Assembly: GCA_001791305.1 (NCBI GenBank) | Contig: MGEI01000003.1 | Coordinates: forward strand, 13,926-77,925 | DNA: 64,000 nt | DNA from: Candidatus Uhrbacteria bacterium RIFCSPLOWO2_01_FULL_47_17 | GTDB taxonomy: Bacteria; Patescibacteriota; Patescibacteriia; UBA9934; GWF2-40-263 | Direction of reading: 5' to 3' | Shown: piece by piece, positions 5,285-63,864 of the stretch | Layout of the letters: every line of letters begins with the position of its first letter | Position numbering within the stretch: the stretch's first letter is position 1 | The notes under the pieces: model-generated | The model's database searches: none | Seen by the model: only the letters and a program-made list of their open reading frames with translations | What the model was told of the DNA's origin: nothing | Translations under genes and position numbers: made by a program

Positions 5285-5418
5285 CCACAACTCGGTTGCG
5301 CTTTTTTATTTGTGTATGCTAAGCTTTTTGTACAACTTTATTCCTTCTGCCACAGGTGATTCGTGGCAGCGTCCCCTGGAGAACAACCTCGCAGGGAGTT
5401 TGACGTATGGAGAAAAAG

Positions 5419-5565
5419 TGGATGAGTGATGGAGTGGAAGAGTGAAGGAAGAAAAACAGTTTTTGTTTTTTGTAACGACTTTCTCCCTGTCTCTCACATT
5501 CCAAAATAAAAAAGATGCTCCCTTCTATCACTCTTCCACTCTGTCTTATGTCTTTCTCTCTCCAC
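5419..5565. repeat. Imperfect long palindromic element, family D copy 1 (core GAGTGGAAGAGTGA in both arms), overlapping the uvrB start
   Basis: Left arm gatgagtgatggagtggaagagtgaagga, right arm cttctatcactcttccactctgtc, AT-rich loop; related copy at 18338-18520. Confidence 0.45.
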
Positions 5566-7581: not shown

Positions 7582-10308
7582 ATGCAAGACAAAATTATCG
7601 TGCGGGGTGCGCGCGAGCACAATTTGAAAAATATCAATGTTGAGATGCCTCGCAACAAGCTTGTGTGTATCACAGGTGTTTCGGGTTCTGGGAAATCTTC
7701 GCTTGCGTTTGATACGATTTTTGCCGAGGGGCAACGCCGATATGTCGAATCGCTCTCGGCGTACGCGCGACAGTTTCTCGGACAAATGGAAAAACCCGAT
7801 GTCGATGATATTGAAGGTTTGTCGCCGGCAATTTCCATCGACCAAAAGGCTCACTCGAGTAACCCTCGTTCTACCGTGGCAACCATCACGGAGATTTATG
7901 ATTATTTGCGTGTGTTGTATGCGCGTGTTGGAAAGCCGCATTGTCCAAAATGTGGAGAGCAAATTCAGAAATTGACGAATGAGGAGATGGTGGATGTTGT
8001 TTTGGGAAAGGTTGGAGAGGAAATGAAAGGATCGCTGAAAATTCTCGCGCCTGTCGTCGTCGGAAGAAAAGGGGAGTACTACCAGTTGCTTTATGATTTG
8101 TATAACGCCGGATTCGCGCGTGTGCGCATCGACGGAAAAGAATATCGACTCGATGAGAAGATTGAACTTGCGCGCTATCAACAGCACACCATCGAGGTTG
8201 TGGTCGACACGATACCGGTGGTGGAGTTACTCGAGACCTCATCTTCGAGTGCGACCCCTCTCCCCCCGCCCTCTCCCTCGAAGGGAGAGGGGGCTCGGAA
8301 GGAAACGCGTCAGCGTTTGGCGGAGGCACTCGAAACGGCTGTCGAAAAAGGGAATGATGTTGCGACGATTGTGTATCCAGATAAATCCGAACAAATGCTT
8401 TCGGCAAAGTTTTCGTGTCCGAATGATGGGTTTTCGTTTCCAGAAATCGAACCGCGCCTCTTCTCGTTCAACTCACCTTATGGTGCCTGTCAGGCATGTA
8501 CCGGACTCGGAACGGTCGAATTGTTTTCGGAAGAATTGTGTGAGACATGTCACGGCGCGCGTCTGCGATCGGAAGCGCTTCATGTTTGGCTGCCGGGGGT
8601 GGGGAAGGGCGGAAAGGTTGTAGGGGTGCCCTTTGCCTGCCACCCGCAGCATTTGCGTAGGGTGGTGGGTACCCATGCAGGGAAAAAAAAGAAAACACCC
8701 GTTGCACCGATCGAATACACGGAATCAGACGAGCTGATTCCGATGGCCGAAAAGAAAGGGGTTTCGATCGTGGACATTACGAATATGTCCATCGACGAAG
8801 CGGTTTTGTATTTCAAGACGATCGATGTTTCAGAAAAAGATTTGGAGATTGCGGGTTCTGTTTTGCGCGAGATTGAAAATCGTTTGAAGTTCATGCTCGA
8901 CGTGGGCTTACATTATTTGTCTCTCGATCGTCGCGCAGGCACGCTCTCGGGTGGCGAAGCACAGCGCATTCGACTCGCCTCGCAGGTTGGCTCTCGACTT
9001 GTAGGCGCGATGTACGTTCTCGACGAGCCAACGATCGGACTTCATCAACGTGATAATGACAAGCTCATCAAGACGCTTGAGAATTTGCGCGATCTCGGGA
9101 ACACGGTGATTGTGGTTGAGCATGATGAAGACACAATCATGGCGTCCGACTACATGATCGAGATCGGTCCGGGCGCGGGAGTGCACGGCGGATATGTTGT
9201 GGCTGCGGGTGAAACGCCTGCGATTTTCGAAGACAAGAAGTCGCTCACAGCGGCGTATCTTCGAGGAGATCAAAAAATCGAAGTTCCGGCACAACGTCGC
9301 CAAAATGACGGCGGATCGATTCGTCTCAAGGGCGCAACACAAAATAATTTGAAAAACATTGATGTAGAATTTCCGTTGCGCAAGTTTGTGTGTGTGACGG
9401 GTGTTTCTGGTTCGGGAAAATCAACACTCGCGTACGACACGATGTACAAGACCATCTCGAAACGACTTTATGGAGGATCGCAAACGCCAGGGAAGCACAA
9501 AGCACTCCTCGGACTCGAGTACATCGACAAAGCGATCTTGATCGATCAGGACGCGATTGGTCGCACATCACGATCGAATCCGGCGACGTATACCGGAGCG
9601 TGGGCACCGATTCGTGAGCTGTACGCCGAAACCGCGGAAGCAAAATTCCGTGGATATAAAGTTGGGCGATTTAGTTTTAATCGCCCTGGCGGACGATGTG
9701 AACATTGTGAGGGACACGGACTCATTTCCATCGAAATGCATTTTCTTCCAACGGTGTACGTGACGTGTGATATTTGTAAGGGGAAGCGCTTTGATCGCGA
9801 GACACTCGAGATCACGTTCAAAGAAAAGAACATTCACGATGTTCTCGAAATGACGATCGAAGAAGCGACGGTGTTCTTCAAAGAGATTCCTTACATCTAC
9901 GACAAACTCGCGTCGCTGAACGACGTCGGTCTCTCGTATGTTAAACTCGGCCAACCTGCGCCTACGCTCTCCGGTGGAGAAGCACAGCGTGTGAAACTCG
10001 CGACGGAACTTTCGAAGCGCCAGACGGGACGAACATTGTATCTCTTCGATGAACCAACGACAGGTCTCCACTTCGCCGATGTAAAAAAATTGCTCGAAGT
10101 GATGCACTCACTTGTCGACAAAGGAAACTCGGTTATCGTCATCGAACACAACCTCGACGTAATCAAAACCGCAGACTGGATCATCGACATGGGCCCCGAA
10201 GGGGGAGACAAAGGCGGAACGGTTGTGTACGCCGGCACGCCGGAGGAAGTGGCGAGACACAAGGGAAGTCACACGGGGGAGTATTTGAAACGGGTGTTGC
10301 GTTCGTAG
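7582..10308 (+). CDS. uvrA: Excinuclease ABC subunit A (carries two in-frame repeat-element insertions)
   Basis: 908 aa; twin ABC ATPase domains ([14 protein letters not shown]..., [12 protein letters not shown]..., second [14 protein letters not shown]...), zinc-finger Cys pairs. Confidence 0.95.
8255..8295. repeat. Palindromic GC-rich element family A, in-frame inside uvrA (encodes ...[17 protein letters not shown]...)
   Basis: cccctctccccccgccctctccctcgaagggagagggggct; reverse-complement copy inside cysS at 30621-30660. Confidence 0.6.
8620..8678. repeat. Palindromic element family B, in-frame inside uvrA (encodes ...[22 protein letters not shown]...)
   Basis: gtaggggtgccctttgcctgccacccgcagcatttgcgtagggtggtgggtacccatgc; shorter copy gggtacgtaggggtgccctttatgggtacccatgcc at 41153-41188. 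Confidence 0.5.
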
Positions 10309-16520: not shown

Positions 16521-16617
16521 TGTGTCATTCCGACCGAGGAGTCTTCGAGGAGTGGAGGAATCCCGTAAACAAACGAGATTCCTCGGCTACGGTCGAACCT
16601 TCGCTCGGGATGACACA
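16521..16617. repeat. MITE-like palindromic element family C copy 1 (TIR GTGTCATYCCGASCGAGG)
   Basis: gtgtcattccgaccgaggag...cgctcgggatgacacag; reverse-orientation copy at 53914-54003. Confidence 0.5.
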
Positions 16618-18337: not shown

Positions 18338-18520
18338 GCCGGGAGGGAAGAAAACAGAGTGATTGAGTGAATGAGTGGAAGAGTGAATGAAAGAAGGCAG
18401 CTATTTGTTTAATGAGACAAGAAACAAATATGTTTCACGTTTCAAAAATAGTTAATTGTTTTTCCACCATCACTCTTCCACTCCATCACTCTTTCACTTT
18501 GCCTTTCCTCCCCTCCCGGC
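18338..18520. repeat. Imperfect long palindromic element, family D copy 2 (GAGTGAA-type repeats), between mraZ and rsmH
   Basis: gccgggagggaag...gagtgattgagtgaatgagtggaagagtgaatgaaag ... ccaccatcactcttccactccatcactctttcac...cctcccggc, with nested AT-rich central hairpin. Confidence 0.45.
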
Positions 18521-20830: not shown

Positions 20831-23800
20831 TTGAATAATTTTGTTCCATTTTTTATGTTTGATTCTTTTTTTGAAAGAAGTGTTCGACAAGCTTCAAAGA
20901 CCCTGAAGTTTTGTGCGACGCTTTTTTTCGTCGCTGCAACATTCTTGTGGAGTGTGTCACCACTCGGTTTGTTGTCGGCGCGTCCGGTGTTTGCGGCATC
21001 TGCCGTCACGGTGTCAAATGGCACCATTAACGCAAACTTTCCTGGTGCGCTTATTCAAGCAAGTTCGCCAGCAACGTCCATTGCAAAGGTCAGTGTTACC
21101 GCGTCAGCTGCGAGTAAAACACTCACTTCCGTCCAAGTAAACTTTTCTGGATCGGGATTTGCAACGTCTGACCTTTTGGATCTTGCAACAGACGACGCGT
21201 CCGGAGTCGCCTTATATAATGATGCGGGTGGAACACCCGGATCTTTTGATGGCACAGACGCGGTTGTCACCCTTGCAAGCGGTCCAGCATTTTCTGGAAC
21301 AAACCTTGTTTTGACGCCGGCAACTCCCGTTGCACTTACAAGCGGCACAGCCGTCATTTTTCACGTTGTTATCAAAACAGCTGCTGGAATTACCCATAAC
21401 GATGTTATTGATGCAACCGTTCCAATCAACGGAGTTGTGACTTCAGATGGCAACGGCCCAACATCTGCATTTGTGGTGAACAATTTGCGTGCAGATACCG
21501 CTGCGGCAACCATTCAAAGCGTTTCTGGTTTCGCAGGTTCTCCAACATTAACCGTCAAGTTTTCAAAGCCAGTTCAAAAAGTTGGTATCGGAAACTTGAG
21601 TTTTGTTGGTGCCGGTGATCCATTTACGTATGTTGATGGTGGTGGTGGTGCAACCGCTCAAACCATTGTTGCTGTTCAACATACAGCAGGACAAGATTTC
21701 GCCACAGTGAACATGTCTACAAATCTTGATGCGGAAGATGTAGATGGATCGCCAGCGACCCTTGCTGCAGGGACAAACAAAATTGCAGACATGGCAGGAA
21801 ACGCACTCGGGACTTCAACGGTAAACATTGGAAGTCCGCTTGGAATTTCAACCGCAAACGTTCAGCTTGCGACAGTTGCTGCTGTTTATGATGCAAACTC
21901 CACTCTTGTGACATTTGAAGCCGTTGGTGGAACCTCACCTTATAGCTTTACGGCAAACAGCGCTGGGGATACAACCATTCTTTCCAATTTAGGCCTTTCA
22001 CTTGCAACAAACGGAAAACTGACAGGAACTGTTGCAAACAGGACAGGAACACATCAAGTAAACATTAAAGTAACAGACAGTACAGGAACTCCACTTACCT
22101 CAACACGTCTTTACAACATTAACGTCGCAACGTCTGGTGGAGCTGTTCCGGCCATCTCAGGTTTGAATCCTGCAGGAGGAGCGCAAAGTGCTTCCGCATT
22201 ATCCATAACGTTAACAGGACTCAACACGTCGTTTACCGGAAGTTCACCCGCTTCTTCGGTTTCTATTGCGCTTCCTTCTGGAGCATCTGAACCAAACGGC
22301 ATTACAGTTGGTGCTATTACAGTAAATAGTGCGACTTCGATCACATTTCCGGTCACAATCGCAGCAAACGCAACAACAGGACCTCGTGATGTTCAAGTTA
22401 CAACCGGATCTCAAACCGTTACCATGCCAAATGGATTTAACGTGTTTGCAAGCGGCGCATCTGGACTCACCTTGTTGCTTCCATCGGACGCATCCACGGG
22501 AAATCCAATGCCACCAACATTTCAATTCAACCCATCAAGCCATGCAGATACAACCGGATATCTCATAACGGTTGCGACGACTTCCAGTTTTTCAACGGTC
22601 GCGTGGCAATACATCTTTCCAAAGCCAGCTGATGCTCAAAATTCAAATGGCAGCCATTGTTCTACAACAAACTGTAATTTGACCTATGGTGCGGGAAATT
22701 TTTCGATCATGCGCCAACCAACGGCTCTTTCTCCGGACACGGTCTATTACTGGAAGGTGAGTACCTATTCAGGAAACTTCATCTCGATCAATCCGGACAC
22801 ATCCGTTCCTCTTGAGACAACAACGGTCCGTTCATTCAGGACAACTGCTTCCGTGCTTGATGCCTCCGCACCAAACATCATGCATCGTCCTGCGTTTAGT
22901 GCAACCGCAAGTACAAACCTTGTGTTGTTTGCACGTATTACGGATGATAAGACAACCGTGAGTACAACTCCAGCGCTCAGTACAAAATTATTTCATTGCC
23001 AAGGAGCAGCTTGTACACCAACAACCCAAGTAATCGGCACCTCTGTCGGGTCTGGATATTTCAGTTTCACCATTCCTAGTAACGCGATTGGAATTGCTGG
23101 AACCATTACACGTTATTACTTGCAAGCAACAGACAGTACCAATACCGCCAACTTTAAAAAGGCAGACGCGTCGCCATTTCAGCTCACATCTGCGGCGGCA
23201 GGTGCTTTCTCGATCGCGGGAACCGTTAAAGATTCCACCAATACCTGTAGCGCTGAAATTCAAGGTGCAAAGGTTTTTGCAGAAGGAAGCGGATTTTACG
23301 CAACCACAGACGGAAGCTGTGCATTTACCATTTCCGGATTGCCAGCTGGAACCTATGATTTAGTTGCGGTCATGGATGATTTTGCTGACCGAATGATTTC
23401 AAGTATTCCTGCCGGATCAACAGCAATTCCATTTAAGCTTACGAATGGAGTAGCAGGTGGAGCAGGGGGAGATATCACAAAACCTCGCGTCAAATTTTCA
23501 GGTCCTATGGATGGCATGACAAATATGCCAGGAGGGGACACGAACTTTAAGGTTTCTGTTGTATTTGATAAGGCGATGAGTCAATCGTCCATCAACGCCA
23601 TGGACCTTACGGTCAACGAAGTAAATCTCACAACAGGAGCTCTTACAGACATCACAAGCACAAAAGGTTCTTGGACCTATTACAATTCAGCTCCTTCGCC
23701 AGCAGTGATGGGAATTCCAAATGAATCCAACATGGCTGTTTGGGCGTTTACGGGAGGAAACACATTTGGTGATAATAAAACCATTGCCGTTGTTGCAACT

Positions 23801-26800
23801 TCTGGTGTGACAGATACTGCTGGTAACGCCATTCAAGGAAACCAATCTGATGGAAGTTACGTCTTTACGTTCACCACGAGTTCAACCGCCACTTTTTCCG
23901 GAAATACGCTTACGGGTGGAACATTTGGTTCCGGTGCCTTTGTTGCTCCACGCGTAAATGGAATTTCACCTGCTCCTGGATCAATAGATGTTGCACGTAA
24001 CCGAAAAGTGGTTATTGATTTTTCCGTCCCTATGGCAGATGACGGAGGTGGGTACACATTGAAGAGTACGGTAAAACTGTTTTCCGTCTCAGGAACAACG
24101 GAAACAGATGTAAGCTCAACTGCCATTGATACAGTGACGCTCAACTCCGCAAAGACGAGCGCAACCGTTTCGCTTTTGAGCACGTTTAATACGGGTTTGT
24201 TTGCGGCAAGCACGAATTATCGTGTGAAGATCATGGGAACAGCAAAGGCTGCAAATGGAATGACACTCGCTCCGCCAGCAAGTGCGTCCACAACGGTCTC
24301 GTTCATGGGTGACTTCAAAACGAGTGCGACATCAGATACAGCTGCTCCAACCATTGTTGGAACATTTCCGGATACAGACGCAACGAGCGTTCCTGTGAAC
24401 GTTGGTGCGGTAAGTGTTGGATTTAGTAAAGACATGGATGTTTCCACACTGACATCAAGCAATATTTATCTTTCTGTCGGTTCAACAACTGTAAACGGAA
24501 CATTGGAATATCGTCCTCTTGAGCGCCAAGCGTACTTCTTACCAAAATCCGCATTGAGTGGCGCAACGACATACACATTAACGCTTTCAACGGGTGTGAA
24601 AGCAGCAAACGGAGTTGCTCTTGCATCAGCTGTAACGCGTTCCTTCACAACAGGGGTAGCGGATAGCACAGCGCCATCCATTTCCTTCATGAACGCAGAT
24701 GATTATTCCATCGCGATTACGTTCTCGGAGCCGATGAATGCCGCAAAAGCAACAGATACATTGAATTGGTCAACATCCGTCATTAATCCAGCCGTTTACA
24801 ATGTATTGAAATATGGAGCTGCAGGATTCAACGTAAGTTCAGCTGGAACAGCCGTTGCTTTGACGAGTGCTCAATTTAAGTATGACGCTGTTACAAACAC
24901 GGTCGTTATTTCTGGCTTGAGTTTGACTGCAGCAATCGGTCAAGAATTGTATGTGTCCATGGATATTTCTGGAACACCATCAAGTGGTGCACAAATCGCT
25001 CTTGATTTGTCCGGAAATGCGATTACATCTGCAGGAAACTCCTCACGTGCAACGTTGAAAAATAGCGCGACAACAAAAGGTGCGCTTGGACCAATGGCCT
25101 CTTCAACGGATGCGTCAACAACGGCTGGACAATTTATTCCAACCAACTTCTCAACCAACACCTTCGGTTTCGCTCCGCCAGTTGAAGTGAAGCCAATGAC
25201 AACAGGTGCGGGAAAAATAACAACATACGCTGCCCGTATCCCAATTTCCACTCAAATTGCAGCTGGCGGAACAGCTGTTCTGACATTTCCAGCTGGGTTT
25301 GATGTTTCTCTCGCAAGCCAAGATATCAATCACCCAATGCGTACAGACTTGAATGGTCCGGGCTCCGGAACGATTACATTTAGGTGTTTAACAAATGTTG
25401 CAGGTGGAAAATCTTGTGCATCAGGCGCAAACAGCGATGATACGGGCGCTGCTCAAGGTGGACTTGCCGATGACGGAGTTGTTGTAAACACAGCAGCCAG
25501 ATCTGTTACGGTTTATCTTTCCGCGGCAACAAACAGCACAGGACATGATTTTCTTGAGATTTTTCTTGCTGGAATCAAGAACTCAACTGTTCCAAAAGAT
25601 TCCTCAACATCTGGTTATACGGTTGACATTAAGACAAAGAGCTCAACAACGGTTCATGAGTCTTTGACCTCCGCACCATTCTACATTCAAGGTGTAACAG
25701 GAACCGCTTACACATTGACCGGAACCATCACAGCAACATCGAACGACCAAACGGGAACCATGAAGGTTTTCCTCATGTCTCCAATGACGGGTCCAATGGA
25801 AACAACCTCCGCAGATTTTGCTAGTGGTGCAACGGCAGCGTTTTCGTTCACAAACTTGTCAGCAGGGGACTACATGCTCATGACAGAGCAGTCGATTACG
25901 CTTGGAAACCGTGAGTATGCAGGAAAAACGTTTCCGGAACGCGTTGTCATCAGCGAAGCGGCAGATATTGCAAACAGTGGAGATAATGACGATACCATTC
26001 CTTACAACTTCACCCTTGCAAGTAACACAAGTGGAATTCCTGTCACCATCTCTATTGATGGACCTAGTGCAGAGCCGGTAGATGTTTTTGCGATGTCCCC
26101 TTCAGGATTCAAAGTCAAACAAGTTACGCTTGATTCAAATGCAGGTGCACAAAACGTCACTCTGTATGTTCCTGCTACAGGAACATATCAAATCGGTGTA
26201 GGTCCTCAGATGCCAAAAGGCATTATGAGTGGTCCGCCTCCTGCTCCGTCTTACTTACCACCACGTCCGATTGAAGTTAAAGCTACTGCAGGATCGCCTA
26301 ATACATTTGTGGAAAATAGCGGAACGGCAAATGATGGAACATTGGTCTTCACTCTCACAGCTTCAAACAAATCAATTAAAGGACTCGTTCAAGACGCTGC
26401 TGGAAAAGTGATGGCAAACGCTGAAGTTTTTGCCTACTCACCAAATGGCGGAATGGGAACACGCGCACAAGCAGATTTGGCAGGTGCGTTTACCTTGAAC
26501 GTTGTGGACGGAAGCTACATTGTTGGAGCATTCATTCCAGGTATGCCGCCTTCAAAGGAAGTTGCTGTGGCGGTTACTTCACATGCAACCACTTACCTGC
26601 TCATCAATGGCGCAACAACAGCCATCACACCAGCGGCAGCGGCAACATCGTTTATTCTCAAAGTTGCAAAGCCTGATTACACGATTTCAGGAACGGTGAC
26701 GGACGGAACAAACGTTATAACGGGCGCATCTATTTATGCTTACAGAACAGATGCTCCTGGACACGCCAACGCACAAACAGATTCTTCTGGAAATTACACA

Positions 26801-29518
26801 CTCTATGTGAGCACCGGAACATGGAAAGTTGGAGTATTCGTGCCACAATACGGACAACTCACAGAAAAAGACGTTGTGATTACAACAGCAAATGCGACAA
26901 GTCAAAATTTTGCTCCTTCTTCGACGGGAACATTCTATTCCGTATCAGGAACCGTGACATCAAACGGTGCTGCTGTTACGGGGGCATTCGTTCGTATCAT
27001 GGGAAATGCCACGTTTAATGAAGCTGTTACGGGAGTAGACGGAACCTACAGCGTGAAAGTCCCGTCTGGAAATGGATATGTCGTGCGCGCGTTTGTTCCT
27101 GGTGTAGGAGATACACCGGAACTCGCTGCCTTTAACGTGACGGCAGACGTAACAGGAAAAGATATCACCGTTGGAACATTGAATACAGTAACTTTCGTGC
27201 TTTCAACCGCCGCAACTGCCATGATTGAAGCGTTCACATCAGATGGACGAGGAAATCGTATTCAAATCAATAACACAACATCCGGAACGATGTCATTGCC
27301 AAACGGTGATTACACCATCCGCGCAAACATTCAGGGAGTAAACATTGGTCTCACAGATATCGCAGCGACCAGTGGATCAACAGTTTATAGCTCAACAACA
27401 GGAATCGTAACGGTGAACGGAGCAGAATCCCTTACCATTACCCTTCCAACACAAAGAACGATTACGGGAACCGTTCGTGATAGTGCAGGACTTTTGGCTG
27501 ATGCGTGGGTTGAAATCAGTAGTGCAACATCTGGAATCCGTTTTGGAACAAAGAGTGATGTAAATGGAGCCTTTACGCTTAAGGTGGCAGATTCAGCAAC
27601 CGCTTATCGTCTGAACGCCATGAAGCCAGGATATTTCCGTGAGCCAAGCTCCCTTACCGTCAATGGATCAGATCCAGCGGCACAGGTCCTCACGTTAACA
27701 TCCGCAACAACAACCATTACCGGTCAAGTTCTGGTTGGATCTAACCCTGTCGCAAACGCCTTCGTACGTGCGGAAAAACAAGGAGGTGGATTTGCAGGAA
27801 CACAGGCAGATGCAAGCGGAAATTATACGTTGTCTGTTACGTCCGGCGTTTGGAGTGTTTATGCTGTCGGTCAGGGATATGCAGAAAAAGCATTTGCTTC
27901 AAACCCAATTGACGTCACTGCTGGATCCGTCACAGGAAAAACTATTACGCTGTCAACGACCGTGACGCTTGATCCACCAAAATCGAAGTCCATTACGCCA
28001 TCCTCAGGAGGAACCTTAGAAGATACAACCGCAGGAATTTCCTTAAACATTCCAGCGAATGCCTTTGGTTCCGTTTCTGAGGCTGCATCACTTACTTCGA
28101 CAGAAACAAGCAACATCCGCCGAACAGATTCTGCAAGACCTGTTAAAGGAATTGAAATTAAAGCGACGGATTCAGACGGAAATGCGATTACAACATTGAA
28201 TAATGACGCGACCGTCGAAATGACGTTAACACAGGCTGAGCTTGCTGCAACGGCTTCTGACTCAGACGCATCCATCAACACGATGGCGGAAGTCGACAAG
28301 TTGCGTATGGCCTACTTTGACGAAACAACCGCGAACTGGGTGACTCTTGAAACGACAAGAACATGTGAAAACGCAAGTGGTGTCGTGATTACAGATGCAA
28401 CGGCATTAGACACTGCCGTAGAATTTACAGATAATTGTGCTGTACTCAAAATTGCTGCGCTCACAGATCACTTTTCTCTCTACGCCCCAGTTGTCTCAAC
28501 AAGTTCTGAAGCCCCATCAACTCCAAGTGGATTTGCAGGATCTTCAAATTCTACATCTTCCGTAAACTTGTCATGGACTGTCGTGTCGGATGCAACTTCA
28601 TATGATATTTATCGAAGTAGTTCATCAAGTGGAACATTCACACGTCTTGGAAGTGAACCAACAGTCAGTTCTGGATCAACGGTCACATATGCCGACACAG
28701 GTCTCACATCTAGCACAGCATATTATTACAAGATCACCTCATTAAATACTTCGGGCGAATCCGCTTCGTCGAGTGTGATTTCCGTCATAACAGTAGGCGC
28801 AAGTGGTGGAGGTGGTTCATCAGGTCCTGTCACCCTTCCATCAACAACTACAACGACTACGACAACAACAACCGTCGCACCAACGACAACAACACCTGTC
28901 GCAGCTGCACCAAAGGTTGCTGAGGTTGTAACGGTTAAAGCAAGTCCGGTTGCACAGTTGATTCAAAATCCCGCAAAGGCGAGTGAACTTATCGCTGCGC
29001 TTGGCCTTACAACCAAACCAGCAGACGAAAAGAAATATTCAGCTCTCATAAAGTCTGATGCTCTCGCATTCAAAGTGAAATTAACCGCTGAGCAACAGAC
29101 CACGATTACAAACTTCGTCACATACGGTGCCTCTGCCGAAACCGTAAAACTCGGTGCGGGTGAACGTCGTGCGGTCGTTCGTGATTATCTTGAGACCGTC
29201 GGACGCTCAGAAGTGATCTGGGAAGATGTCCAGCGCATGGCAACAGGTCAAAAATTAGTCAATCGCAATTTGGCAAAAGAACAAGCGCAAGTAAACCGTG
29301 TGCTCGCAAACTTTAAGCACATGGTTGGCCACGCGCCAAACTTTAAAGTGCCAGCAGAAGATATCGCTTGGAACACCATGATGTATCGCATCCGTTTTCC
29401 ACGTGATCTTACTGTAGAAAAACAAGGAATCGTAGAATTCAAAGGGCTCTACAAGCGCAATCCAAGCACACCAATGGAATGGTCCATTGTGCGCGCTCTC
29501 GGATACGCCTTGAAATAA
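20831..29518 (+). CDS. Giant secreted surface protein (2,895 aa) with Ig-like, CarboxypepD_reg/PEGA-like and FN3 repeats, poly-Thr linker and distinct C-terminal domain
   Basis: N-terminal signal peptide; Thr/Ser/Ala/Gly-rich beta-repeat modules; repeated GTVTDG...GNYTL motifs; FN3-like LSWTVVSDATSYDIYRSS...YYYKITSLN; TTTTTTTTTT linker. Confidence 0.7.
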   Translation: MNNFVPFFMFDSFFERSVRQASKTLKFCATLFFVAATFLWSVSPLGLLSARPVFAASAVTVSNGTINANFPGALIQASSPATSIAKVSVTASAASKTLTSVQVNFSGSGFATSDLLDLATDDASGVALYNDAGGTPGSFDGTDAVVTLASGPAFSGTNLVLTPATPVALTSGTAVIFHVVIKTAAGITHNDVIDATVPINGVVTSDGNGPTSAFVVNNLRADTAAATIQSVSGFAGSPTLTVKFSKPVQKVGIGNLSFVGAGDPFTYVDGGGGATAQTIVAVQHTAGQDFATVNMSTNLDAEDVDGSPATLAAGTNKIADMAGNALGTSTVNIGSPLGISTANVQLATVAAVYDANSTLVTFEAVGGTSPYSFTANSAGDTTILSNLGLSLATNGKLTGTVANRTGTHQVNIKVTDSTGTPLTSTRLYNINVATSGGAVPAISGLNPAGGAQSASALSITLTGLNTSFTGSSPASSVSIALPSGASEPNGITVGAITVNSATSITFPVTIAANATTGPRDVQVTTGSQTVTMPNGFNVFASGASGLTLLLPSDASTGNPMPPTFQFNPSSHADTTGYLITVATTSSFSTVAWQYIFPKPADAQNSNGSHCSTTNCNLTYGAGNFSIMRQPTALSPDTVYYWKVSTYSGNFISINPDTSVPLETTTVRSFRTTASVLDASAPNIMHRPAFSATASTNLVLFARITDDKTTVSTTPALSTKLFHCQGAACTPTTQVIGTSVGSGYFSFTIPSNAIGIAGTITRYYLQATDSTNTANFKKADASPFQLTSAAAGAFSIAGTVKDSTNTCSAEIQGAKVFAEGSGFYATTDGSCAFTISGLPAGTYDLVAVMDDFADRMISSIPAGSTAIPFKLTNGVAGGAGGDITKPRVKFSGPMDGMTNMPGGDTNFKVSVVFDKAMSQSSINAMDLTVNEVNLTTGALTDITSTKGSWTYYNSAPSPAVMGIPNESNMAVWAFTGGNTFGDNKTIAVVATSGVTDTAGNAIQGNQSDGSYVFTFTTSSTATFSGNTLTGGTFGSGAFVAPRVNGISPAPGSIDVARNRKVVIDFSVPMADDGGGYTLKSTVKLFSVSGTTETDVSSTAIDTVTLNSAKTSATVSLLSTFNTGLFAASTNYRVKIMGTAKAANGMTLAPPASASTTVSFMGDFKTSATSDTAAPTIVGTFPDTDATSVPVNVGAVSVGFSKDMDVSTLTSSNIYLSVGSTTVNGTLEYRPLERQAYFLPKSALSGATTYTLTLSTGVKAANGVALASAVTRSFTTGVADSTAPSISFMNADDYSIAITFSEPMNAAKATDTLNWSTSVINPAVYNVLKYGAAGFNVSSAGTAVALTSAQFKYDAVTNTVVISGLSLTAAIGQELYVSMDISGTPSSGAQIALDLSGNAITSAGNSSRATLKNSATTKGALGPMASSTDASTTAGQFIPTNFSTNTFGFAPPVEVKPMTTGAGKITTYAARIPISTQIAAGGTAVLTFPAGFDVSLASQDINHPMRTDLNGPGSGTITFRCLTNVAGGKSCASGANSDDTGAAQGGLADDGVVVNTAARSVTVYLSAATNSTGHDFLEIFLAGIKNSTVPKDSSTSGYTVDIKTKSSTTVHESLTSAPFYIQGVTGTAYTLTGTITATSNDQTGTMKVFLMSPMTGPMETTSADFASGATAAFSFTNLSAGDYMLMTEQSITLGNREYAGKTFPERVVISEAADIANSGDNDDTIPYNFTLASNTSGIPVTISIDGPSAEPVDVFAMSPSGFKVKQVTLDSNAGAQNVTLYVPATGTYQIGVGPQMPKGIMSGPPPAPSYLPPRPIEVKATAGSPNTFVENSGTANDGTLVFTLTASNKSIKGLVQDAAGKVMANAEVFAYSPNGGMGTRAQADLAGAFTLNVVDGSYIVGAFIPGMPPSKEVAVAVTSHATTYLLINGATTAITPAAAATSFILKVAKPDYTISGTVTDGTNVITGASIYAYRTDAPGHANAQTDSSGNYTLYVSTGTWKVGVFVPQYGQLTEKDVVITTANATSQNFAPSSTGTFYSVSGTVTSNGAAVTGAFVRIMGNATFNEAVTGVDGTYSVKVPSGNGYVVRAFVPGVGDTPELAAFNVTADVTGKDITVGTLNTVTFVLSTAATAMIEAFTSDGRGNRIQINNTTSGTMSLPNGDYTIRANIQGVNIGLTDIAATSGSTVYSSTTGIVTVNGAESLTITLPTQRTITGTVRDSAGLLADAWVEISSATSGIRFGTKSDVNGAFTLKVADSATAYRLNAMKPGYFREPSSLTVNGSDPAAQVLTLTSATTTITGQVLVGSNPVANAFVRAEKQGGGFAGTQADASGNYTLSVTSGVWSVYAVGQGYAEKAFASNPIDVTAGSVTGKTITLSTTVTLDPPKSKSITPSSGGTLEDTTAGISLNIPANAFGSVSEAASLTSTETSNIRRTDSARPVKGIEIKATDSDGNAITTLNNDATVEMTLTQAELAATASDSDASINTMAEVDKLRMAYFDETTANWVTLETTRTCENASGVVITDATALDTAVEFTDNCAVLKIAALTDHFSLYAPVVSTSSEAPSTPSGFAGSSNSTSSVNLSWTVVSDATSYDIYRSSSSSGTFTRLGSEPTVSSGSTVTYADTGLTSSTAYYYKITSLNTSGESASSSVISVITVGASGGGGSSGPVTLPSTTTTTTTTTTVAPTTTTPVAAAPKVAEVVTVKASPVAQLIQNPAKASELIAALGLTTKPADEKKYSALIKSDALAFKVKLTAEQQTTITNFVTYGASAETVKLGAGERRAVVRDYLETVGRSEVIWEDVQRMATGQKLVNRNLAKEQAQVNRVLANFKHMVGHAPNFKVPAEDIAWNTMMYRIRFPRDLTVEKQGIVEFKGLYKRNPSTPMEWSIVRALGYALK

Positions 29519-29586: not shown

Positions 29587-30996
29587 ATGCAGCTCTATAA
29601 CACTCTCACCCGATCAAAACAGGAATTCAACCCAATTCAAAACAAACGCGTCGGTGTCTATTCCTGTGGCCCAACTGTGTATTGGTTTGCGCACATCGGA
29701 AACATGCGCGCGTTTCTGTTTGCGGATCTTTTGTGCCGGGCGCTTCGGATGAATGGGTACGCCGTCGAACAAATCATGAACATCACAGACGTTGGGCACC
29801 TCACAGATGATGCAGATGAAGGGGAAGACAAGATGATGGTTGCCATGAAACGGGAGGGAAAAACCGCGTATGACATAGCGGAATTTTACGCGCAAGCGTT
29901 TTTTAAGGACCTCGAGGCACTCAACATCACACCAGCTTCAAGATACCCTCGAGCAACGGAACACATTGCCGAGCAGATTGAAATGATCGAAGCACTCGAG
30001 AAAAACGGATTCACATATCAAACAAGTGATGGAATTTATTTCGATACCTCGAAGCTCGCAGATTACGGTCGACTCTCGGGACAGAAGTTGGATGAGAAAC
30101 AAGCAGGCTCTCGCGTCGACATGGGGGAGAAAAAAAATGCGACGGATTTTGCGTTGTGGAAATTTAGTCCCACAACAGGCTCGGGAAATACAAAAAGGCA
30201 AATGGAATGGGAATCTCCGTGGGGAATTGGTTTTCCTGGATGGCACATCGAGTGTTCAGCCATGTCGAAGAAATATCTTGGTGTGCCGTTTGATATTCAT
30301 ACAGGAGGGATCGATCACATCGCGGTTCATCATGAGAATGAAATTGCACAGACAGAGGGGGCGGAAGGGAAGCTTGAGGCGAATTATTGGATGCATAACG
30401 AGTTTATTACGGTTGATGGTGGCAAGATGTCGAAGTCGCTTGGAAATGTTTATACGATCGAGCAGCTTGTCGAAAAAGGCTTCGACCCGCTCGCGTTTCG
30501 ATATCTTTGTTTACAAGCGCACTACCGATCGAAGCTGAATTTTACTTGGGAGTCTCTCGAAGCTGCACAGAATGCACTGAATCGTCTTCGAAGTACTATC
30601 CGAGAATGGGACGCACCTCTAGCCCCCTCTCTCTTCGAGGGAGAGGGCGGGGGGAGAGGGATCGCGCTCGAAGCGCGCTTCTCCCAAGCGATCAATGACG
30701 ATTTGAATACACCCGAGGCTCTCTCAATCCTATGGCAACTCGTCGACTCCGACTATCCAACTTCCGCAAAAGCGGAATCACTCTTGAAATTTGATCAAAT
30801 TCTCGGTTTACACCTCGATCAGTTTATCGGGAAGTCCGTCGAGATTCCTCCCGAAGTACAGAAGCTTCTCGACGAGCGCGCGCATGCTCGCACAGAAAAG
30901 AACTGGAGTGAATCCGATCGTCTGCGCACAGAAATTGAGGAACGCGGATTTATCGTTGAGGATAAACCAGAAGGACAGAATGTGCGAGAAATGTGA
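29587..30996 (+). CDS. cysS: Cysteine--tRNA ligase (carries an in-frame family A element)
   Basis: CGPTVYWFAHIGNMRA (HIGH), KMSKSLGN (KMSKS), zinc Cys residues; ATG at 29587. Confidence 0.9.
   Translation: MQLYNTLTRSKQEFNPIQNKRVGVYSCGPTVYWFAHIGNMRAFLFADLLCRALRMNGYAVEQIMNITDVGHLTDDADEGEDKMMVAMKREGKTAYDIAEFYAQAFFKDLEALNITPASRYPRATEHIAEQIEMIEALEKNGFTYQTSDGIYFDTSKLADYGRLSGQKLDEKQAGSRVDMGEKKNATDFALWKFSPTTGSGNTKRQMEWESPWGIGFPGWHIECSAMSKKYLGVPFDIHTGGIDHIAVHHENEIAQTEGAEGKLEANYWMHNEFITVDGGKMSKSLGNVYTIEQLVEKGFDPLAFRYLCLQAHYRSKLNFTWESLEAAQNALNRLRSTIREWDAPLAPSLFEGEGGGRGIALEARFSQAINDDLNTPEALSILWQLVDSDYPTSAKAESLLKFDQILGLHLDQFIGKSVEIPPEVQKLLDERAHARTEKNWSESDRLRTEIEERGFIVEDKPEGQNVREM
30621..30660. repeat. 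Palindromic GC-rich element family A, inverted copy in-frame inside cysS (encodes ...[16 protein letters not shown]...)
   Basis: agccccctctctcttcgagggagagggcggggggagaggg is the reverse complement of the uvrA copy with 1-2 mismatches. Confidence 0.6.
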
Positions 30997-34188: not shown

Positions 34189-34806
34189 ATGAACGAAGAC
34201 GAATTCGAATTTGAACCAGACCCTTTCAAAATAGGCGGGGTTCCGAGACCCCGCGGAGAAGATCCAGATGTCCGATCAAAGCTTGCGCTTCAAATGTTGA
34301 AACAGGTTCAGCAATCCCTTGCGCATGTCATCCAGCTTTTGGAGGATGGAGACACCGCGCGCGCCACGCTCGGAATGGTGAATTTCGTTATGGGCAAAAA
34401 AGCGTTTGAGCAAACGCTGGAACGAGAAACGGGCGCGCGAACACATGAAGGTGTGTTTGACGGGATGTTTGTTGTCACGTCCGAGGGCGCGCGTCATCCT
34501 GTTCCAGAGAATTATGCGTCGAAATCAAAACTTGTCGAAGGGGACATGATGAAACTCATTGTGACGCCGGATGGACGACATGTGTATAAACAAATCGCCC
34601 CGGTTGAACGAAAGCGCATTGTGGGCGTTTTAGGTCAAGATATACTTACCAACACCCCCGTTGTCATGGTTCAAGATGTTGTGTATAAAGTTCTTCAAGC
34701 AAGCGTTTCGTATTTCAAAGCCGTTCCCGGTGATGAAGTCGTAATTCTCGTCCCGGGAAGCGGAAGATCCGTTTGGGCCGCTCTCGAACGTATTGTTTCC
34801 AAATAA
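34189..34806 (+). CDS. Hypothetical protein, possibly co-transcribed with the ATPase
   Basis: 205 aa, 30 nt downstream of the ATPase stop; no known domain. Confidence 0.35.
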   Translation: MNEDEFEFEPDPFKIGGVPRPRGEDPDVRSKLALQMLKQVQQSLAHVIQLLEDGDTARATLGMVNFVMGKKAFEQTLERETGARTHEGVFDGMFVVTSEGARHPVPENYASKSKLVEGDMMKLIVTPDGRHVYKQIAPVERKRIVGVLGQDILTNTPVVMVQDVVYKVLQASVSYFKAVPGDEVVILVPGSGRSVWAALERIVSK

Positions 34807-53913: not shown

Positions 53914-54003
53914 GTGTCATCCCGAGCGGAGCCGAGGGATCTCACATTTATAAAACGCGAGATTTCTCCGTTCGTCGATGACTCCTCAGTCGGAATGACA
54001 CAG
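53914..54003. repeat. MITE-like palindromic element family C copy 2 (reverse orientation) between ftsI and murF
   Basis: gtgtcatcccgagcggagccgagggatc...ctcctcagtcggaatgacacag; aligns end-to-end with 16521-16617 in reverse complement. Confidence 0.5.
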
Positions 54004-61044: not shown

Positions 61045-61119
61045 GGCCTCATCGTCTAACGGTTAGGACAGCAGGTTCTCATCCTGTAAATCGGAGTTCG
61101 ATTCTCCGTGGGGTCACCA
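61045..61119 (+). tRNA. tRNA-Glu (anticodon CUC), CCA encoded
   Basis: Manual fold: acceptor GGCCTCA/TGGGGTC (2 G-U pairs), D arm GTCT-AACGGTTA-GGAC, anticodon stem GCAGG/CCTGT with loop TTCTCAT, T arm CGGAG-TTCGATT-CTCCG, 75 nt. Confidence 0.7.
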
Positions 61120-62623
61120 CAAGGGACTCGCCATCATGGCGGGTCTTTTGTTTTTGTAAAATGAGCGAAATTCTTGTAGTTCCAAAACCTTTTCCCTTAA
61201 AATACGGAATTCCTTCAGGAAAAATCAATTTTTGGAACTTAATTCTTCGTTCTCCTTGTAAGTCATTCCATTGTTGATCAAGATGCTCAACAAATTTGGT
61301 TGCATAAGTAATTGCGAATTCAACATCTAGTTGGTCAGTCTTGTAATCATTCATGGATACGCGGATTGTTGCCATTTCGTTTTCAATCTCAGATTTTCGT
61401 TCTTGATATACCTCTTTCGTATAAGATCCATCCTCAAACATCTCACAAATTCTTTTGCGCTTGGTTTCCAACACACCAAGTTGTTTTACGTATTTTGTTG
61501 CATCTGATTCAAAACTACCGCGTTCTTCTGCCCATCTATCAATTACGCTTTCTCGTAAAAGATCTAAGTGCTGTTTAGTCGGTTCTAATTCTTGCAGAAC
61601 TTTCATAAAGTCTCTTTCCACCGTTTCTTTTGAGAGTGATTTGTTTTGCATGGCACAATCTGGAGTGTAGCAATGATAATATCCGTACTGACCGCCAACT
61701 CCTCTCGATCGACTACCAGTGACAGTGTTGTTACATGCTCCGCATCGAAGAATCTTCTTTAATGGAAAAAGAGGATTAAAGCTTGATCGCGGTTGTTTCT
61801 TAATGCGTTTGCCTTTTCGGATTGCGATGATCTGATACATTTCATCTTCTGTGATCATCGCTGTGTGAAGACCTTTTATCTCTTCATCTTTCACCCATGG
61901 ATTCTGAATAATCCCGGCATAGTATTTCAAATACTGACCAAGCATCTTGTCGACCATTTGCTTTGTCGTTTTTCTATTACGTATTTTCTCTAAGCCTTCC
62001 TGTTTCAAGTAAGCACAAATTTCAGATAACTCGATCTCACCACGAGAGAATCTTTTTAATGCTCTCTGGAGAATAGGAAAAACAACCGGATCAATCCCAT
62101 CAGCTGTATTTTTCTTCTCTCCGTGCATCTTGGAACGATTACTCAAATAACCGAGCGGAGGCTTCCACGGCGTAATTCCTTGCCTTACACGCGCGATCAT
62201 TCCGTCAACGCTTCTTTGAGAGCGAACTGCGTTATCAAACTCTGCTGTTCCGGCCAGAATTGTTTCAAGAAACTTTTGCGAAGGATTGTTTCCAATAAGT
62301 TCCGTGACTGAATGAAGGGTCGTACCGTAATCTTGTAAGAGCTTGCGAATGCTGAAATGATCTTCCGTATTTCTTGCAAAGCGATCAACTTTTACAACAA
62401 CAAATGCATCTATCTTTCCTTTATTCTGATGACAGAATGCAAGTGCACGAAGAAACTCAGTTCGCTCAGACGATTTTGCAGACTCTCCCTCTTCTCGGAA
62501 GACCTTAAGAACTTCTAAACCTTTTTCCAGACAATACTGTCGACATTTTCTTTCTTGATCTTCAAGAGATGTACCATTAACCTGTTCATTTGAACTAACG
62601 CGTGTGTAAATAATTGCTTTCAT
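61079..62623 (-). CDS. Large serine recombinase (integrase) of an integrative element
   Basis: MKAIIYTRVSSNEQ resolvase-type catalytic Ser; recombinase domain; C-terminal Cys zinc ribbon/coiled coil; 3' end overlaps tRNA-Glu by about 40 nt. Confidence 0.85.
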   Translation of the reverse strand: MKAIIYTRVSSNEQVNGTSLEDQERKCRQYCLEKGLEVLKVFREEGESAKSSERTEFLRALAFCHQNKGKIDAFVVVKVDRFARNTEDHFSIRKLLQDYGTTLHSVTELIGNNPSQKFLETILAGTAEFDNAVRSQRSVDGMIARVRQGITPWKPPLGYLSNRSKMHGEKKNTADGIDPVVFPILQRALKRFSRGEIELSEICAYLKQEGLEKIRNRKTTKQMVDKMLGQYLKYYAGIIQNPWVKDEEIKGLHTAMITEDEMYQIIAIRKGKRIKKQPRSSFNPLFPLKKILRCGACNNTVTGSRSRGVGGQYGYYHCYTPDCAMQNKSLSKETVERDFMKVLQELEPTKQHLDLLRESVIDRWAEERGSFESDATKYVKQLGVLETKRKRICEMFEDGSYTKEVYQERKSEIENEMATIRVSMNDYKTDQLDVEFAITYATKFVEHLDQQWNDLQGERRIKFQKLIFPEGIPYFKGKGFGTTRISLILQKQKTRHDGESLVVTPRRIELRFTG

Positions 62624-62633
62624 ACGTTGATTC

Positions 62634-63773
62634 TTACATTTTGGTTTCGAAGAGGTTGATGTATTTTGAGAATACGAACATTCGATTTCTTTTGAATCCG
62701 GTTGTTTCCTTCAAAATCCCTAATTTTTCAAATTCAGTGAGTAAAGTAATTGCAGACGGTGTTGAAATATTCAACCACTGAACAACTTGCTTACTGTTTA
62801 CGATTGGTTGTGAATAAAGTTTATTTAAGAACTCACGCGCAACAGGTGCACGTTTTCCCATTTTCAGAATGCGTTTTTCAAGATCCTCACGCAGGTCGAT
62901 GATTTTTTGGAATGTTTCGACTCCACTTTTAGCCGTTTCTGCAACACCAACAAGAAAGAATCTGATCCAGTGTTCAATGTCATTTGATGTTCTTACATGT
63001 GTCAGTGCATCGTAGTATTTGCCTTTATTACGCTCAAAAAAATCCGATAAATACAACGTGGGCTTTTGAAGCAGGTTGTTATTCACTAAATAGAGCGTAA
63101 TCAAAAGACGACCGATACGTCCGTTTCCATCTAAGAAAGGGTGAATGGTTTCAAATTGATAATGACTGATCGCGACACGGATCAAATGTGGAACCTCAAT
63201 CTTTTTGTTGTGCCAAAACTTTTCCAGATCACTCATGAGTGCAGAAACTTCGGTTGGATGTGGTGGAATAAAGATAGCGTCTTTAAGTGTTGCACCCCCG
63301 ATCCAGTTTTGACTCGTTCGAATATCACCCGGCATTTTGTGCTTTCCCCTTACGCCTGAAAGAAGAATCTTGTGAGTGTCTTTTAAGAGCCTTGTTGAAA
63401 GAGGTGTCTTCGAGAGCTCCTTAATCGCTCCGTTCATCGCCTTGGTGTAATTTTGAACCTCTGACCAGTCATCACGACGTTCAGGATCAATCTCTTCTTC
63501 TGGCAACAACGCCTCATCCATGCCCGTTTTTGTTCCTTCAATGCGACTCGATGTTGTTGCTTCTTTAAGGACGTGCATTCTGATATAGAAATCAACGTCC
63601 GGAACGAAACGAGAAAATGCATTCAGTTCGGCAAGATGGCGTGTTGCTTCTTCGAGAAGAACGTCGATTCTTGGGTCGGTCCAGGAAAACGGATGATTAA
63701 CCGGAGTAGGACTAAAACTTTTGTACTTATCCTGTTGCTTATAGATTCCTGCTTTGAAGACATTGCTTTGCAT
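62634..63773 (-). CDS. Fic-family AMPylator (class II, N-terminal inhibitory motif) with C-terminal winged-helix region
   Basis: Canonical [12 protein letters not shown] Fic motif; upstream TSSRIEGT = (S/T)xxxE(G/N) inhibitory motif. Confidence 0.85.
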
Positions 63774-63864
63774 AAGAATTGAACTTTTAGTATGGATTCT
63801 CTTACTTAAAGTTTATCTACTAACTTTTATTATGTCAAATCATACTAAAAGTTACTTATCCGCT

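Follow-up and report, generated by a model that had tools for sequence, protein, structure and literature searches.

The uvrA and cysS genes of a Candidatus Uhrbacteria genome each contain, in frame, a copy of one small GC-rich element, and the two copies are in opposite orientation. The DNA analyzed, referred to here as the window, is a stretch of 64,000 nt from this bacterium of the Candidate Phyla Radiation (CPR, or Patescibacteria) from the Rifle aquifer. It has a GC content of ~47%. The uvrA gene (positions 7582–10308, plus strand), the host of copy 1, encodes a full-length protein of 908 aa that matches the UvrA structures 2r6f and 9gxk (phmmer against the PDB, E = 0) and has the Pfam UvrA_inter and ABC domains. 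The cysS gene (29587–30996, plus strand), the host of copy 2, encodes a full-length protein of 469 aa related to the CysS structures 3sp1 and 1li5, with the Pfam domains tRNA-synt_1e, DALR_2 and CysS_C. Its product matches the cysteine--tRNA ligase of Ca. Uhrbacteria RIFCSPHIGHO2_02_FULL_47_44.

The original prediction for this DNA quoted a ~40 bp sequence from each gene and regarded the two as one element, inverted and in frame. Both sequences are present where they were placed, they do represent one inverted element, and the peptides quoted for UvrA and CysS agree with the translations of the open reading frames (ORFs). The size needs revision: the ~40 bp are confirmed as a match, but the full shared tract is 53 nt. 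The 23-nt core CCCTCTCCCTCGAAGGGAGAGGG is found at positions 8269–8291 with no mismatch and, as its reverse complement, at positions 30625–30647 with one mismatch. These are the only two sites in the window when up to three mismatches are allowed, and the chance expectation at this stringency is 0.00, as determined with 100 dinucleotide-preserving shuffles of the window. A repeat search of the window extends the inverted pair to positions 8243–8295 and 30621–30673, with 94% complementarity.

Copy 1 (positions 8243–8295, plus strand) has a C-rich sense strand with the order Y-Y-R, where Y is a pyrimidine arm and R a purine arm. Copy 2 (positions 30621–30673, minus strand) is inverted relative to copy 1, and the cysS sense strand is G-rich with the order Y-R-R. 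Both encode 17 residues, as read from the sequence, the repeat search and the reading frames. The tract is 13 nt longer than first seen, and the gain is on the side of the Y arm. The 13-nt extension in uvrA, CTTCGAGTGCGAC (positions 8243–8255, plus strand), is common only to the cysS copy on sequence comparison.

Identical UvrA proteins are encoded on at least 17 contigs and identical CysS proteins on at least 24, from independent ENA, NCBI and JGI assemblies, and 908 aa is the length of every full-length member of the 90% UvrA cluster. The two segments are therefore real and fixed in the species. The readable part of the genome, i.e., the window together with the L370 and L368 flanks (~83 kb), has two copies. 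Pyrimidine/purine hairpins of at least 8 bp occur exactly twice in these ~83 kb, and the two are the uvrA and cysS copies.

The element had been termed palindromic. It is not a plain palindrome but a three-armed Y-R-R / Y-Y-R unit, with Watson-Crick pairing at 8–9 of 9 positions and mirror symmetry at 9 of 9. The combined Watson-Crick and mirror score of the uvrA and cysS copies is reached by 0 of 500 shuffles. On the G-rich strand the layout is CCCTCTCCC - TTCGA - GGGAGAGGG - CGGG - GGGAGAGGG, in which a 9-bp hairpin precedes another purine arm, the mirror image of the first. Arm analysis of the uvrA copy on the plus strand gives arm Y1, CCCTCTCCC (positions 8256–8264), as the third, Hoogsteen-type arm, followed by the linker CCCG (8265–8268). 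Arm Y2, also CCCTCTCCC (8269–8277), is the Watson-Crick arm and is followed by the loop TCGAA (8278–8282). Arm R, GGGAGAGGG (8283–8291), is followed by the conserved tail GGCT (8292–8295), and both the Watson-Crick and the mirror matches are 9/9. The three-arm core of the cysS copy (positions 30625–30660, read on the plus strand) consists of Y, CCCTCTCTC (30625–30633, with one C>T), loop TTCGA, R1, GGGAGAGGG (30639–30647), linker CGGG and R2, GGGAGAGGG (30652–30660). Here the Watson-Crick match is 8/9 and the mirror match 9/9. In most copies from other genomes, among the matches listed, a tail (A/G)GC follows the last arm.

The sequence GGGAGAGGGCGGGGGGAGAGGG is a G-quadruplex (G4) motif, i.e., four tracts of three or more G with loops of 1–7 nt. 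It is found at positions 30639–30660 (plus strand) and 8255–8277 (minus strand) and adjoins the complementary C-arm. By regular-expression search, the uvrA and cysS sites are the only canonical G4 motifs in the 64-kb window. ViennaRNA, which represents hairpins only, was applied to four strands. Modeled as RNA, three of them, namely both G-rich strands and the C-rich one from uvrA, reach -28 to -31 kcal/mol; as DNA the range is -9.5 to -14.6 kcal/mol. These energies do not differ significantly from those of dinucleotide shuffles (z = -0.3 to -1.2). Folding energy carries no weight as evidence, since shuffling does not keep the C-rich half from pairing with the G-rich one.

An Rfam search of the whole window finds two tRNAs only and nothing at the uvrA or cysS element. 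Promoter and terminator scans around both sites find nothing at the elements, and a reading of the element as a terminator was rejected. A comparison of alleles with the element (filled) and without it (empty) shows no terminal inverted repeats beyond the internal arms and no duplicated flank at either site. The element is thus not a MITE (miniature inverted-repeat transposable element) with a target-site duplication, a candidate that was also rejected.

Membership in the BoxC class and occurrence in other genomes

As judged by sequence and architecture, the window element is a member of the class formerly named BoxC or "potential intrastrand triplex" (PIT) and renamed TMECO by Holder et al. 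2015 (PMC4666352), who cite earlier work by Bachellier, Hoyne and Maher. The TMECO consensus is CCCTCNCCC-N3-6-GGGNGAGGG-N3-GGGNGAGGG, and 3,610 copies are present in 262 proteobacterial genomes (PMC4666352). The isolated TMECO strand forms a stable triplex in vitro, but a triplex was not detected in vivo. TMECO displays neither promoter nor terminator activity and was not found linked to mobile elements. An association with local genomic instability is described, and in E. coli K-12 the motif is "always" intergenic, in 23 of 23 cases (PMC4666352).

The arms of the uvrA copy on the reverse strand, CCCTCTCCC / GGGAGAGGG / GGGAGAGGG, follow the TMECO arm consensus, and those of the cysS copy are the same with the exception of one C>T in the C-arm. 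The second G-arm is a 9/9 mirror in both copies, so that the purine-motif triads G*G-C and A*A-T (or T*A-T) are possible. Loop 1 is 5 nt, which is within N3-6; loop 2 is 4 nt (CGGG) and departs from the published N3 by one base. A strict TMECO regular expression gives no match in the window, and with loop 2 relaxed to 2–5 nt it gives exactly the uvrA and cysS sites. Loop 2 is 3 nt, a strict fit, in a copy at the orthologous uvrA site of a relative (L244), and is 4 nt in the entC-fepB copy of E. coli strain A35. The N3 of the TMECO definition therefore looks like a search setting and not a boundary of the family.

Of 5,426 complete E. coli genomes, 3,818 have blastn matches to the 57-nt uvrA segment, at 11,415 places in all and with 84–90% identity. 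The E. coli matches span ~40 nt (query positions ~6–48) and have no annotated feature beneath them. The one match inspected falls in the spacer between entC and fepB, a locus already on the published TMECO list.

The window element and the published BoxC/PIT/TMECO copies have in common the three-arm layout, with arms CCCTCTCCC / GGGAGAGGG / GGG(A/T)GAGGG that are nearly the same, as well as a dispersed distribution in either orientation and the lack of a known mobilizing gene. They differ in several respects. The window copies are in frame within essential genes, whereas the published copies are intergenic; the intergenic location is a descriptive property of the E. coli copies and not part of the sequence definition. 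Loop 2 of the window copies is 4 nt, and their third arm is a perfect mirror, GGGAGAGGG, so that a perfect triplex of the pyrimidine type would be possible for the C-rich strand as well. The host, with ~47% GC, belongs to the CPR and lies outside the 262 proteobacterial genomes surveyed. In addition, different arm families recur at one cysS site in Uhrbacteria, as described below.

Two other groups of G-rich repeats are comparable. HPG1 and HPG2 of E. coli are loci with a switch between G-quadruplex, hairpin and duplex, "none within" ORFs (Kaplan et al. 2016, PMC5100583), and the fepB-entC and hrpB-mrcB spacers are in both the TMECO and the HPG lists (PMC4666352, PMC5100583). HPG thus represents the same E. 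coli loci as TMECO viewed from the G4 side, and the window copies are likewise canonical G3+N1-7 motifs beside a complementary C-arm. However, the HPG loci are outside ORFs and their structure switching was seen in vitro, whereas the window variant is known from its sequence alone. Methanomicrobiaceae have repeated potential G4 sequences with a C-rich arm, mostly in non-coding DNA (PMC8044849). These are similarly interspersed and G-rich, with a complementary C-arm, an antiparallel third strand and a possible hairpin/triplex/G4 transition, but they have arms of the GGGGAGGGGG type, the C-arm is on the opposite side and most copies are non-coding (PMC8044849). The intragenic enterobacterial repeats described by Delihas were considered as a precedent and rejected, as they are RU/ERIC elements and not BoxC.

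Copies are widespread beyond E. coli. The 22-mer CCCTCTCCCCCCGCCCTCTCCC, which comprises two arms and the linker of the window element, is found verbatim in species-representative genomes of many phyla, with at least dozens of copies in Pseudomonas nitroreducens and P. citronellolis. Among the matches listed, it is also present in Acidovorax, Legionella, Cupriavidus, Cellvibrio, Acidobacteria, Actinomycetota, Nitrospirae and Polyangiales, and a purine arm always follows it. The bare hairpin CCCTCTCCC-N3-7-GGGAGAGGG occurs in viral contigs, where most of the matches listed carry the third arm, either CCCTC(A/T)CCCC upstream or GGGG(T/A)GAGGG downstream. The hairpin with a TCGAA loop is seen, again among the matches listed, in metagenome contigs of 37–74% GC; a proposal that this loop is a lineage-specific mark was rejected because of its occurrence across metagenome contigs.

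A separate observation concerns P. nitroreducens and P. citronellolis. At loci L127–L243, among the matches listed, a conserved tail, GGGAGAGGGAGCTATCCGTGCCGGCTGA, comes after the three-arm unit, with several copies per genome. This suggests that unit and tail form a longer composite repeat.

In-frame palindromic elements in housekeeping proteins had been considered rare outside Rickettsia. This does not hold for the present hairpin, which is also in frame on unrelated metagenome contigs: in chorismate synthase (with the Pfam profile covered over 1–327), in two PyrK-type proteins, at the C-terminal end of dihydroorotase, in an HRQ1/MrfA-type (DEAD) helicase and in YebC. The yebC copy is at positions 285–335 of L142 (DATEAE010000171.1) and has the same loop and 4-nt linker as the window element. 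L142 is labelled "Candidatus Nanoarchaeia archaeon" and yet carries bacterial-type yebC and ruvC genes. It is probably mis-binned and from a CPR bacterium.

The original comparison with Rickettsia palindromic elements (RPEs) is apt for the behavior of the element, i.e., a repeat that is in frame, specific to a lineage and placed in housekeeping-protein loops, but not for its class, which is the pan-bacterial BoxC / PIT / TMECO and is not restricted to one lineage. RPEs are ~150 bp and comprise ten families, each with a conserved peptide (PMC10969869), whereas the window unit is 30–53 nt. The likeness consists of an in-frame repeat in unrelated housekeeping genes that the orthologues lack and that the host protein's fold accommodates, in a position compatible with the protein surface; both window inserts are modeled by AlphaFold2 as low-confidence coil. 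The differences are that the window element is read in three frames in three genes and gives different peptides, while the RPE peptide is conserved within a family, and that the window element is three-armed, not a simple palindrome, and of a pan-bacterial class.

Repetitive extragenic palindromic (REP) sequences are extragenic, have a sequence that is largely species-specific and are linked to a RAYT gene. The window element resembles REPs and REPINs as a short GC-rich hairpin repeat of a kind dispersed in bacterial genomes. It differs in that the window copies are genic and the sequence is conserved across phyla. No Y1_Tnp-type (RAYT / IS200) Pfam match is present among the called genes of L001, L366, L368 and L370, which cover ~83 kb of the genome.

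Insertion sites and arm families in Uhrbacteria

The segments had been predicted to be lineage-specific insertions, and this is borne out by relatives with ~90–94% (UvrA) and 80–85% (CysS) protein identity that are without them. The UvrA relatives P0003–P0009 (~90–94% identity over aligned columns) read AEL-ASAP-KETRQRL and have no insert. A protein alignment and a MAFFT alignment of four uvrA genes show that the whole window segment (positions 8230–8298, plus strand) is in place of 12 nt, GCGAGCGCGCCG ("ASAP"), of the empty relatives. This represents +57 nt relative to the empty L246 and L373 and +21 nt relative to the filled L244. The P0002 lineage has a filled UvrA loop, with a quoted stretch of 26 residues compared with 33 in the window protein.

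The CysS relatives P0124, P0125, P0127, P0129 and P0130 (80–85% identity) are shorter by 10 residues. A DNA alignment shows a clean gap of 30 nt in L372, L365 and L246 relative to the window, L363 and L364. The gap of 30 columns corresponds to a stretch of ~30 nt missing from the empty cysS alleles (positions 30624–30653, plus strand), whose exact placement depends on the alignment. The adjoining ATCGCGCTCGAAG (30661–30673, plus strand), although inside the 53-nt shared tract, aligns with what appear to be native cysS codons.

Both segments are in predicted surface loops of low confidence, as the original prediction had suggested, on the basis of AlphaFold2 models, PDB alignment and Pfam. In an alignment with the Geobacillus UvrA structure the segment corresponds to a gap; within the UvrB-interaction domain it takes the place of ~5 residues that connect a strand to a helix, and the Pfam UvrA_inter match is interrupted at residue 213. 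In the AlphaFold2 models, which were made with 118–120 homologues for both proteins, UvrA residues 219–236 have a predicted local distance difference test (pLDDT) value below 50 and the rest of the model is confident. CysS residues 339–357 are modeled as coil between helices 321–338 and 358–370, with block means of pLDDT 71 and 58, and the rest is again confident. The CysS site is between the Pfam tRNA-synt_1e and DALR_2 domains. Both loops are, according to the models, permissive and disordered, one being part of the UvrB-interaction domain of UvrA and the other the CysS linker from the catalytic/stem-contact part to the anticodon-binding helices.

Stop codons are absent from the 53-nt tract in every one of the six frames. 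In-frame copies therefore need only a length of 3n. The frames used are +2 in uvrA, -1 in cysS and -2 in the yebC gene of L142, where the peptide has 13 residues. As one DNA sequence is read in different frames and on different strands, a protein-level explanation of the similarity is ruled out.

The cysS site also harbors other arm families. In L363 the sequence at the site is CCCCTCCTT-AATG-AAGGAGGGG-TTG-GGGGTGGTC, and in L364 it is CTCCCCCTT-GCA-AAGGGGGAG-TTG-GAGGGGGTC. Both families have 9/9 Watson-Crick and 8/9 mirror matches, values reached by 0 of 500 shuffles. The L363, L364 and window units each represent exactly +30 nt at the same cysS nucleotide position and in the same orientation. 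L372 is empty at this site, though its cysS has 84% DNA identity to both L363 and L364. Neighbor-joining trees show filled and empty alleles interspersed in both genes and do not separate repeated gain from gain combined with replacement and precise loss.

A similar variability is seen in UvrA. The loop has 12 residues in 65 of 120 relatives and is longer in ~30. Many of the longer loops look like hairpin-repeat peptides, e.g., LPLLAKEGTGG, LLPLPRGGREG, VILSERQRVEGS and GLQPA..RRLKPAAT. A second loop of CysS (residues ~195–205, window positions 30160–30200) has a Y-Y-R unit of a fourth family, KAPSPTLPLAGEGERS, in L365 (P0125). Other repeat-like peptides are present in this second loop in P0124, P0128 and P0139, and the window protein has just PTTGSGNTK there.

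UvrA also has a second hypervariable loop (window positions 8602–8742, residues ~341–387) with a pLDDT below 50. P0009 has SSSCHPERSEGSLPVSRDSSVVGLPQNDI at this loop, which looks like another widespread small repeat family, and the window version of the loop may be a decayed copy.

Origin of the copies

The two window copies share 13 nt, CTTCGAGYGCGAY, that are outside the three arms. These are absent from the copy at the L244 uvrA site, from L142 and from the E. coli copies. In cysS the corresponding region reads GGG ATC GCG CTC GAA in the window, GGA ATT GAT GAC ATC GAA in L365 and GTC TGC GCG GAC TTC GAA in L364, i.e., G-I-A-L-E in the window compared with G-I-D-D-I-E and V-C-A-D-F-E in the relatives. 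The 13-nt extension in uvrA is thus, on sequence grounds, probably cysS-derived and was carried along on templating. As the shared 13 nt look like native cysS flank, copying by templating rather than by transposition is suggested. The uvrA copy would have been re-templated from the cysS locus, as element plus a small flank, by ectopic gene conversion or by template switching at the hairpin. An odd "LLE" junction common to the window and L244 suggests that the re-templating was anchored on an element already present in uvrA. Templated copying agrees with the published link of TMECO motifs to local rearrangement (PMC4666352).

A segment of 29 nt (Y2, loop, R and tail) is identical between the window and L244, while the uvrA genes are 84% identical; the expectation, 0.84^29, is ~0.006. 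Re-templating could be one explanation of this identity, and selection on a DNA or RNA structure the alternative. When the uvrA genes of the window and L244 are compared in sliding windows, no recombination tract is seen around the element.

The most probable explanation, to which we assign a probability of about 0.68, is that the genome tolerates the two segments as copies of a DNA element that is selfish or recombinogenic, with the encoded peptide as a passenger. The element would enter the Uhrbacteria genome at the DNA level and land in permissive, disordered loops of UvrA and CysS. An insertion of length 3n would just add a Pro/Ser/Gly/Glu-rich loop, and insertions that shift the frame or are badly placed would be purged by selection on these essential genes. 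The peptide would be translated, presumably with no function of its own. Copies may be spread or renewed by templated copying with no dedicated transposase. The same loops would be hit repeatedly as there are few tolerant places, and possibly the site before the native RGG favors insertion.

Several points weigh against this explanation. No mobilizing enzyme or mechanism is known or found, and there is no transposase-family Pfam match beside either copy. The repeat family in this genome consists of two members in ~83 kb. The near-identity to the E. coli copies across phyla has no explanation here. Copying from cysS to uvrA is the simplest reading of the two sequences, but the opposite direction is possible. 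Finally, the 29-nt identity between the window and L244 could mean selection on structure rather than neutrality. A separate observation is that the sole recombinase seen is a serine recombinase at the right end of the window, which is part of an unrelated integrated element.

Selection on structure would be expected if the DNA or mRNA toggled between hairpin, triplex and G-quadruplex and so tuned transcription, fork passage or translation of uvrA and cysS, with the peptide as the price. We consider such a switch unlikely. It would account for the two sites being the only canonical G4 motifs in 64 kb, for the 29 identical nt against the 84% gene background, and for the three-arm rule that all three arm families keep at one cysS site. 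It also fits the stable RNA hairpins modeled for the two G-rich strands and for the C-rich uvrA strand (-28 to -31 kcal/mol), and the triplex and G4-hairpin switching published in vitro for E. coli copies (PMC4666352, PMC5100583). However, no promoter, terminator or in vivo triplex signal was found in E. coli (PMC4666352), and the window copies show no promoter- or terminator-like site. Close relatives live without the element, the fold energies are not better than those of shuffles (z = -0.3 to -1.2), and the orientation is opposite in uvrA and cysS, so that the two mRNAs bear different strands.

Transposition in trans is the mechanism commonly assumed for RPEs. A non-autonomous transposable element of the REP/REPIN-RAYT, IS200/IS605-type single-stranded DNA hairpin or MITE kind, moved by a transposase of the genome or of a phage, appears slightly less probable here than a switch. 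The dispersed hairpin repeats that cross phyla and are present on viral contigs, the clean 30-nt units at one cysS nucleotide position, and the integrated mobile element with serine recombinase, Fic and Prim-Pol at the right end of the window are consistent with it. But neither site has terminal inverted repeats or target-site duplications, and the called genes in ~83 kb include no Y1/RAYT or IS200-type Pfam match, although most of the genome is beyond that. Published work found no link to mobile elements (PMC4666352), and the shared 13-nt flank, which is not part of the element, fits templated copying better. A low-complexity Pro/Gly linker selected independently in both enzymes, with the DNA similarity as a by-product, is highly improbable. 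Both segments are flexible, in loops and rich in P/S/G/E, but the peptides differ, a single 53-nt sequence (94% identity between the copies) gives rise to them through opposite strands and different frames, and the same DNA is intergenic in E. coli and many other genomes. A convergent protein linker was rejected on the strands and frames. The probability of an artefact, i.e., mis-assembly, a chimeric join at a GC-rich repeat or a sequencing error, is close to nil. GC-rich hairpins are hard to sequence and assemble and the source is a metagenome-assembled genome, but the identical proteins on 17 and 24 contigs are from independent ENA, NCBI and JGI assemblies, the flanking reading frames are intact and full length, and a related lineage has the element at the same uvrA site. 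The recurrence on contigs and the intact frames led to the rejection of an artefact.

The recurrence at one cysS site invites a wider and rather doubtful proposal. Across Bacteria, three-arm units of the triplex type may form a class of insertional DNA that is defined by structure, is still active and has a preferred kind of target. The families CCCTCTCCC, CCCCTCCTT and CTCCCCCTT, which all obey the hairpin-plus-mirror-arm rule and are each +30 nt at one cysS site just 5' of the native RGG, would be examples. If so, this would imply a site-seeking insertion, possibly templated by repair or replication, that generates or replaces three-arm units. In the streamlined CPR genomes, the loops of essential proteins would then receive such insertions time and again and supply new peptide loops. 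If this hotspot proposal is wrong, the element is just one more tolerated selfish repeat.

Over 25 years of study, the BoxC/triplex/G4 motif has, to our knowledge, been regarded as an oddity of intergenic DNA for which neither a function nor a way of spreading is known. A limited literature search found no in-frame copies of the BoxC/PIT/TMECO class and no such elements in CPR, and a search on palindromic elements in CPR/Patescibacteria found general CPR papers only. Relative to the literature searched, which has intergenic copies only, the in-frame location in essential genes is new, as is the finding that three arm families recur, each as +30 nt, at one identical cysS position of related lineages. 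The class is able to lodge in flexible protein loops, those of UvrA and CysS, and near-identical copies elsewhere are in AroC, PyrK and YebC; all these copies are coding as judged by sequence. Different arm families with the same geometry at one codon position are a natural form of "covariation" evidence that the three-arm structure itself propagates, and the pairs of filled and empty alleles are material for testing the insertion mechanism. There is also a caution for annotation: Pro/Ser/Gly/Glu-rich loops in CPR housekeeping proteins can be repeat-derived.

Other repeats and features of the window

An inverted pair of 45 nt, TGTGTCATTCCGACCGAGGAGTCTTCGAGGAGTGGAGGAATC, is found at positions 16521–16565 and 53958–54002 and is 84% complementary. 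One copy is just after a DUF2914 gene, in the start of a doubtful ORF of 193 aa, and the other is in the ftsI-murF spacer. The pair looks like a different small dispersed repeat. A purine-rich repeat of 63–68 nt, GAGTGGAAGAGTGAA, has direct and inverted copies at positions 5402–5477, 18343–18410 and 18438–18500 that are 71–81% similar; these are upstream of uvrB and between mraZ and rsmH. Two pairs of hairpins with GC stems are followed by T runs, at positions 1009–1048 and 2119–2154 (AAACAGAGACC....GGTCTCTGTTTTT) and at 729–758 and 34231–34260 (GGCGGGGT....ACCCCGC). They are probably intrinsic terminators of common sequence.

Directly upstream of cysS is an ORF of 2,895 aa (positions 20831–29518) with CarboxypepD_reg and Big_5 repeats; its product is probably a surface protein of giant size. 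The syntenic region of the relative L246 lacks this ORF, and cysS there follows rsmH and a small ORF. At the right end of the window (positions 61045–64000, continuing into L368 1–10000), a tRNA gene (61045–61116) abuts the gene of the serine recombinase (61079–62623, minus strand). This is followed by Fic, Prim-Pol, DUF5659 and many small ORFs without Pfam matches, and the GC content falls to 0.41. The region from position 61045 is probably an integrated phage or mobile element.

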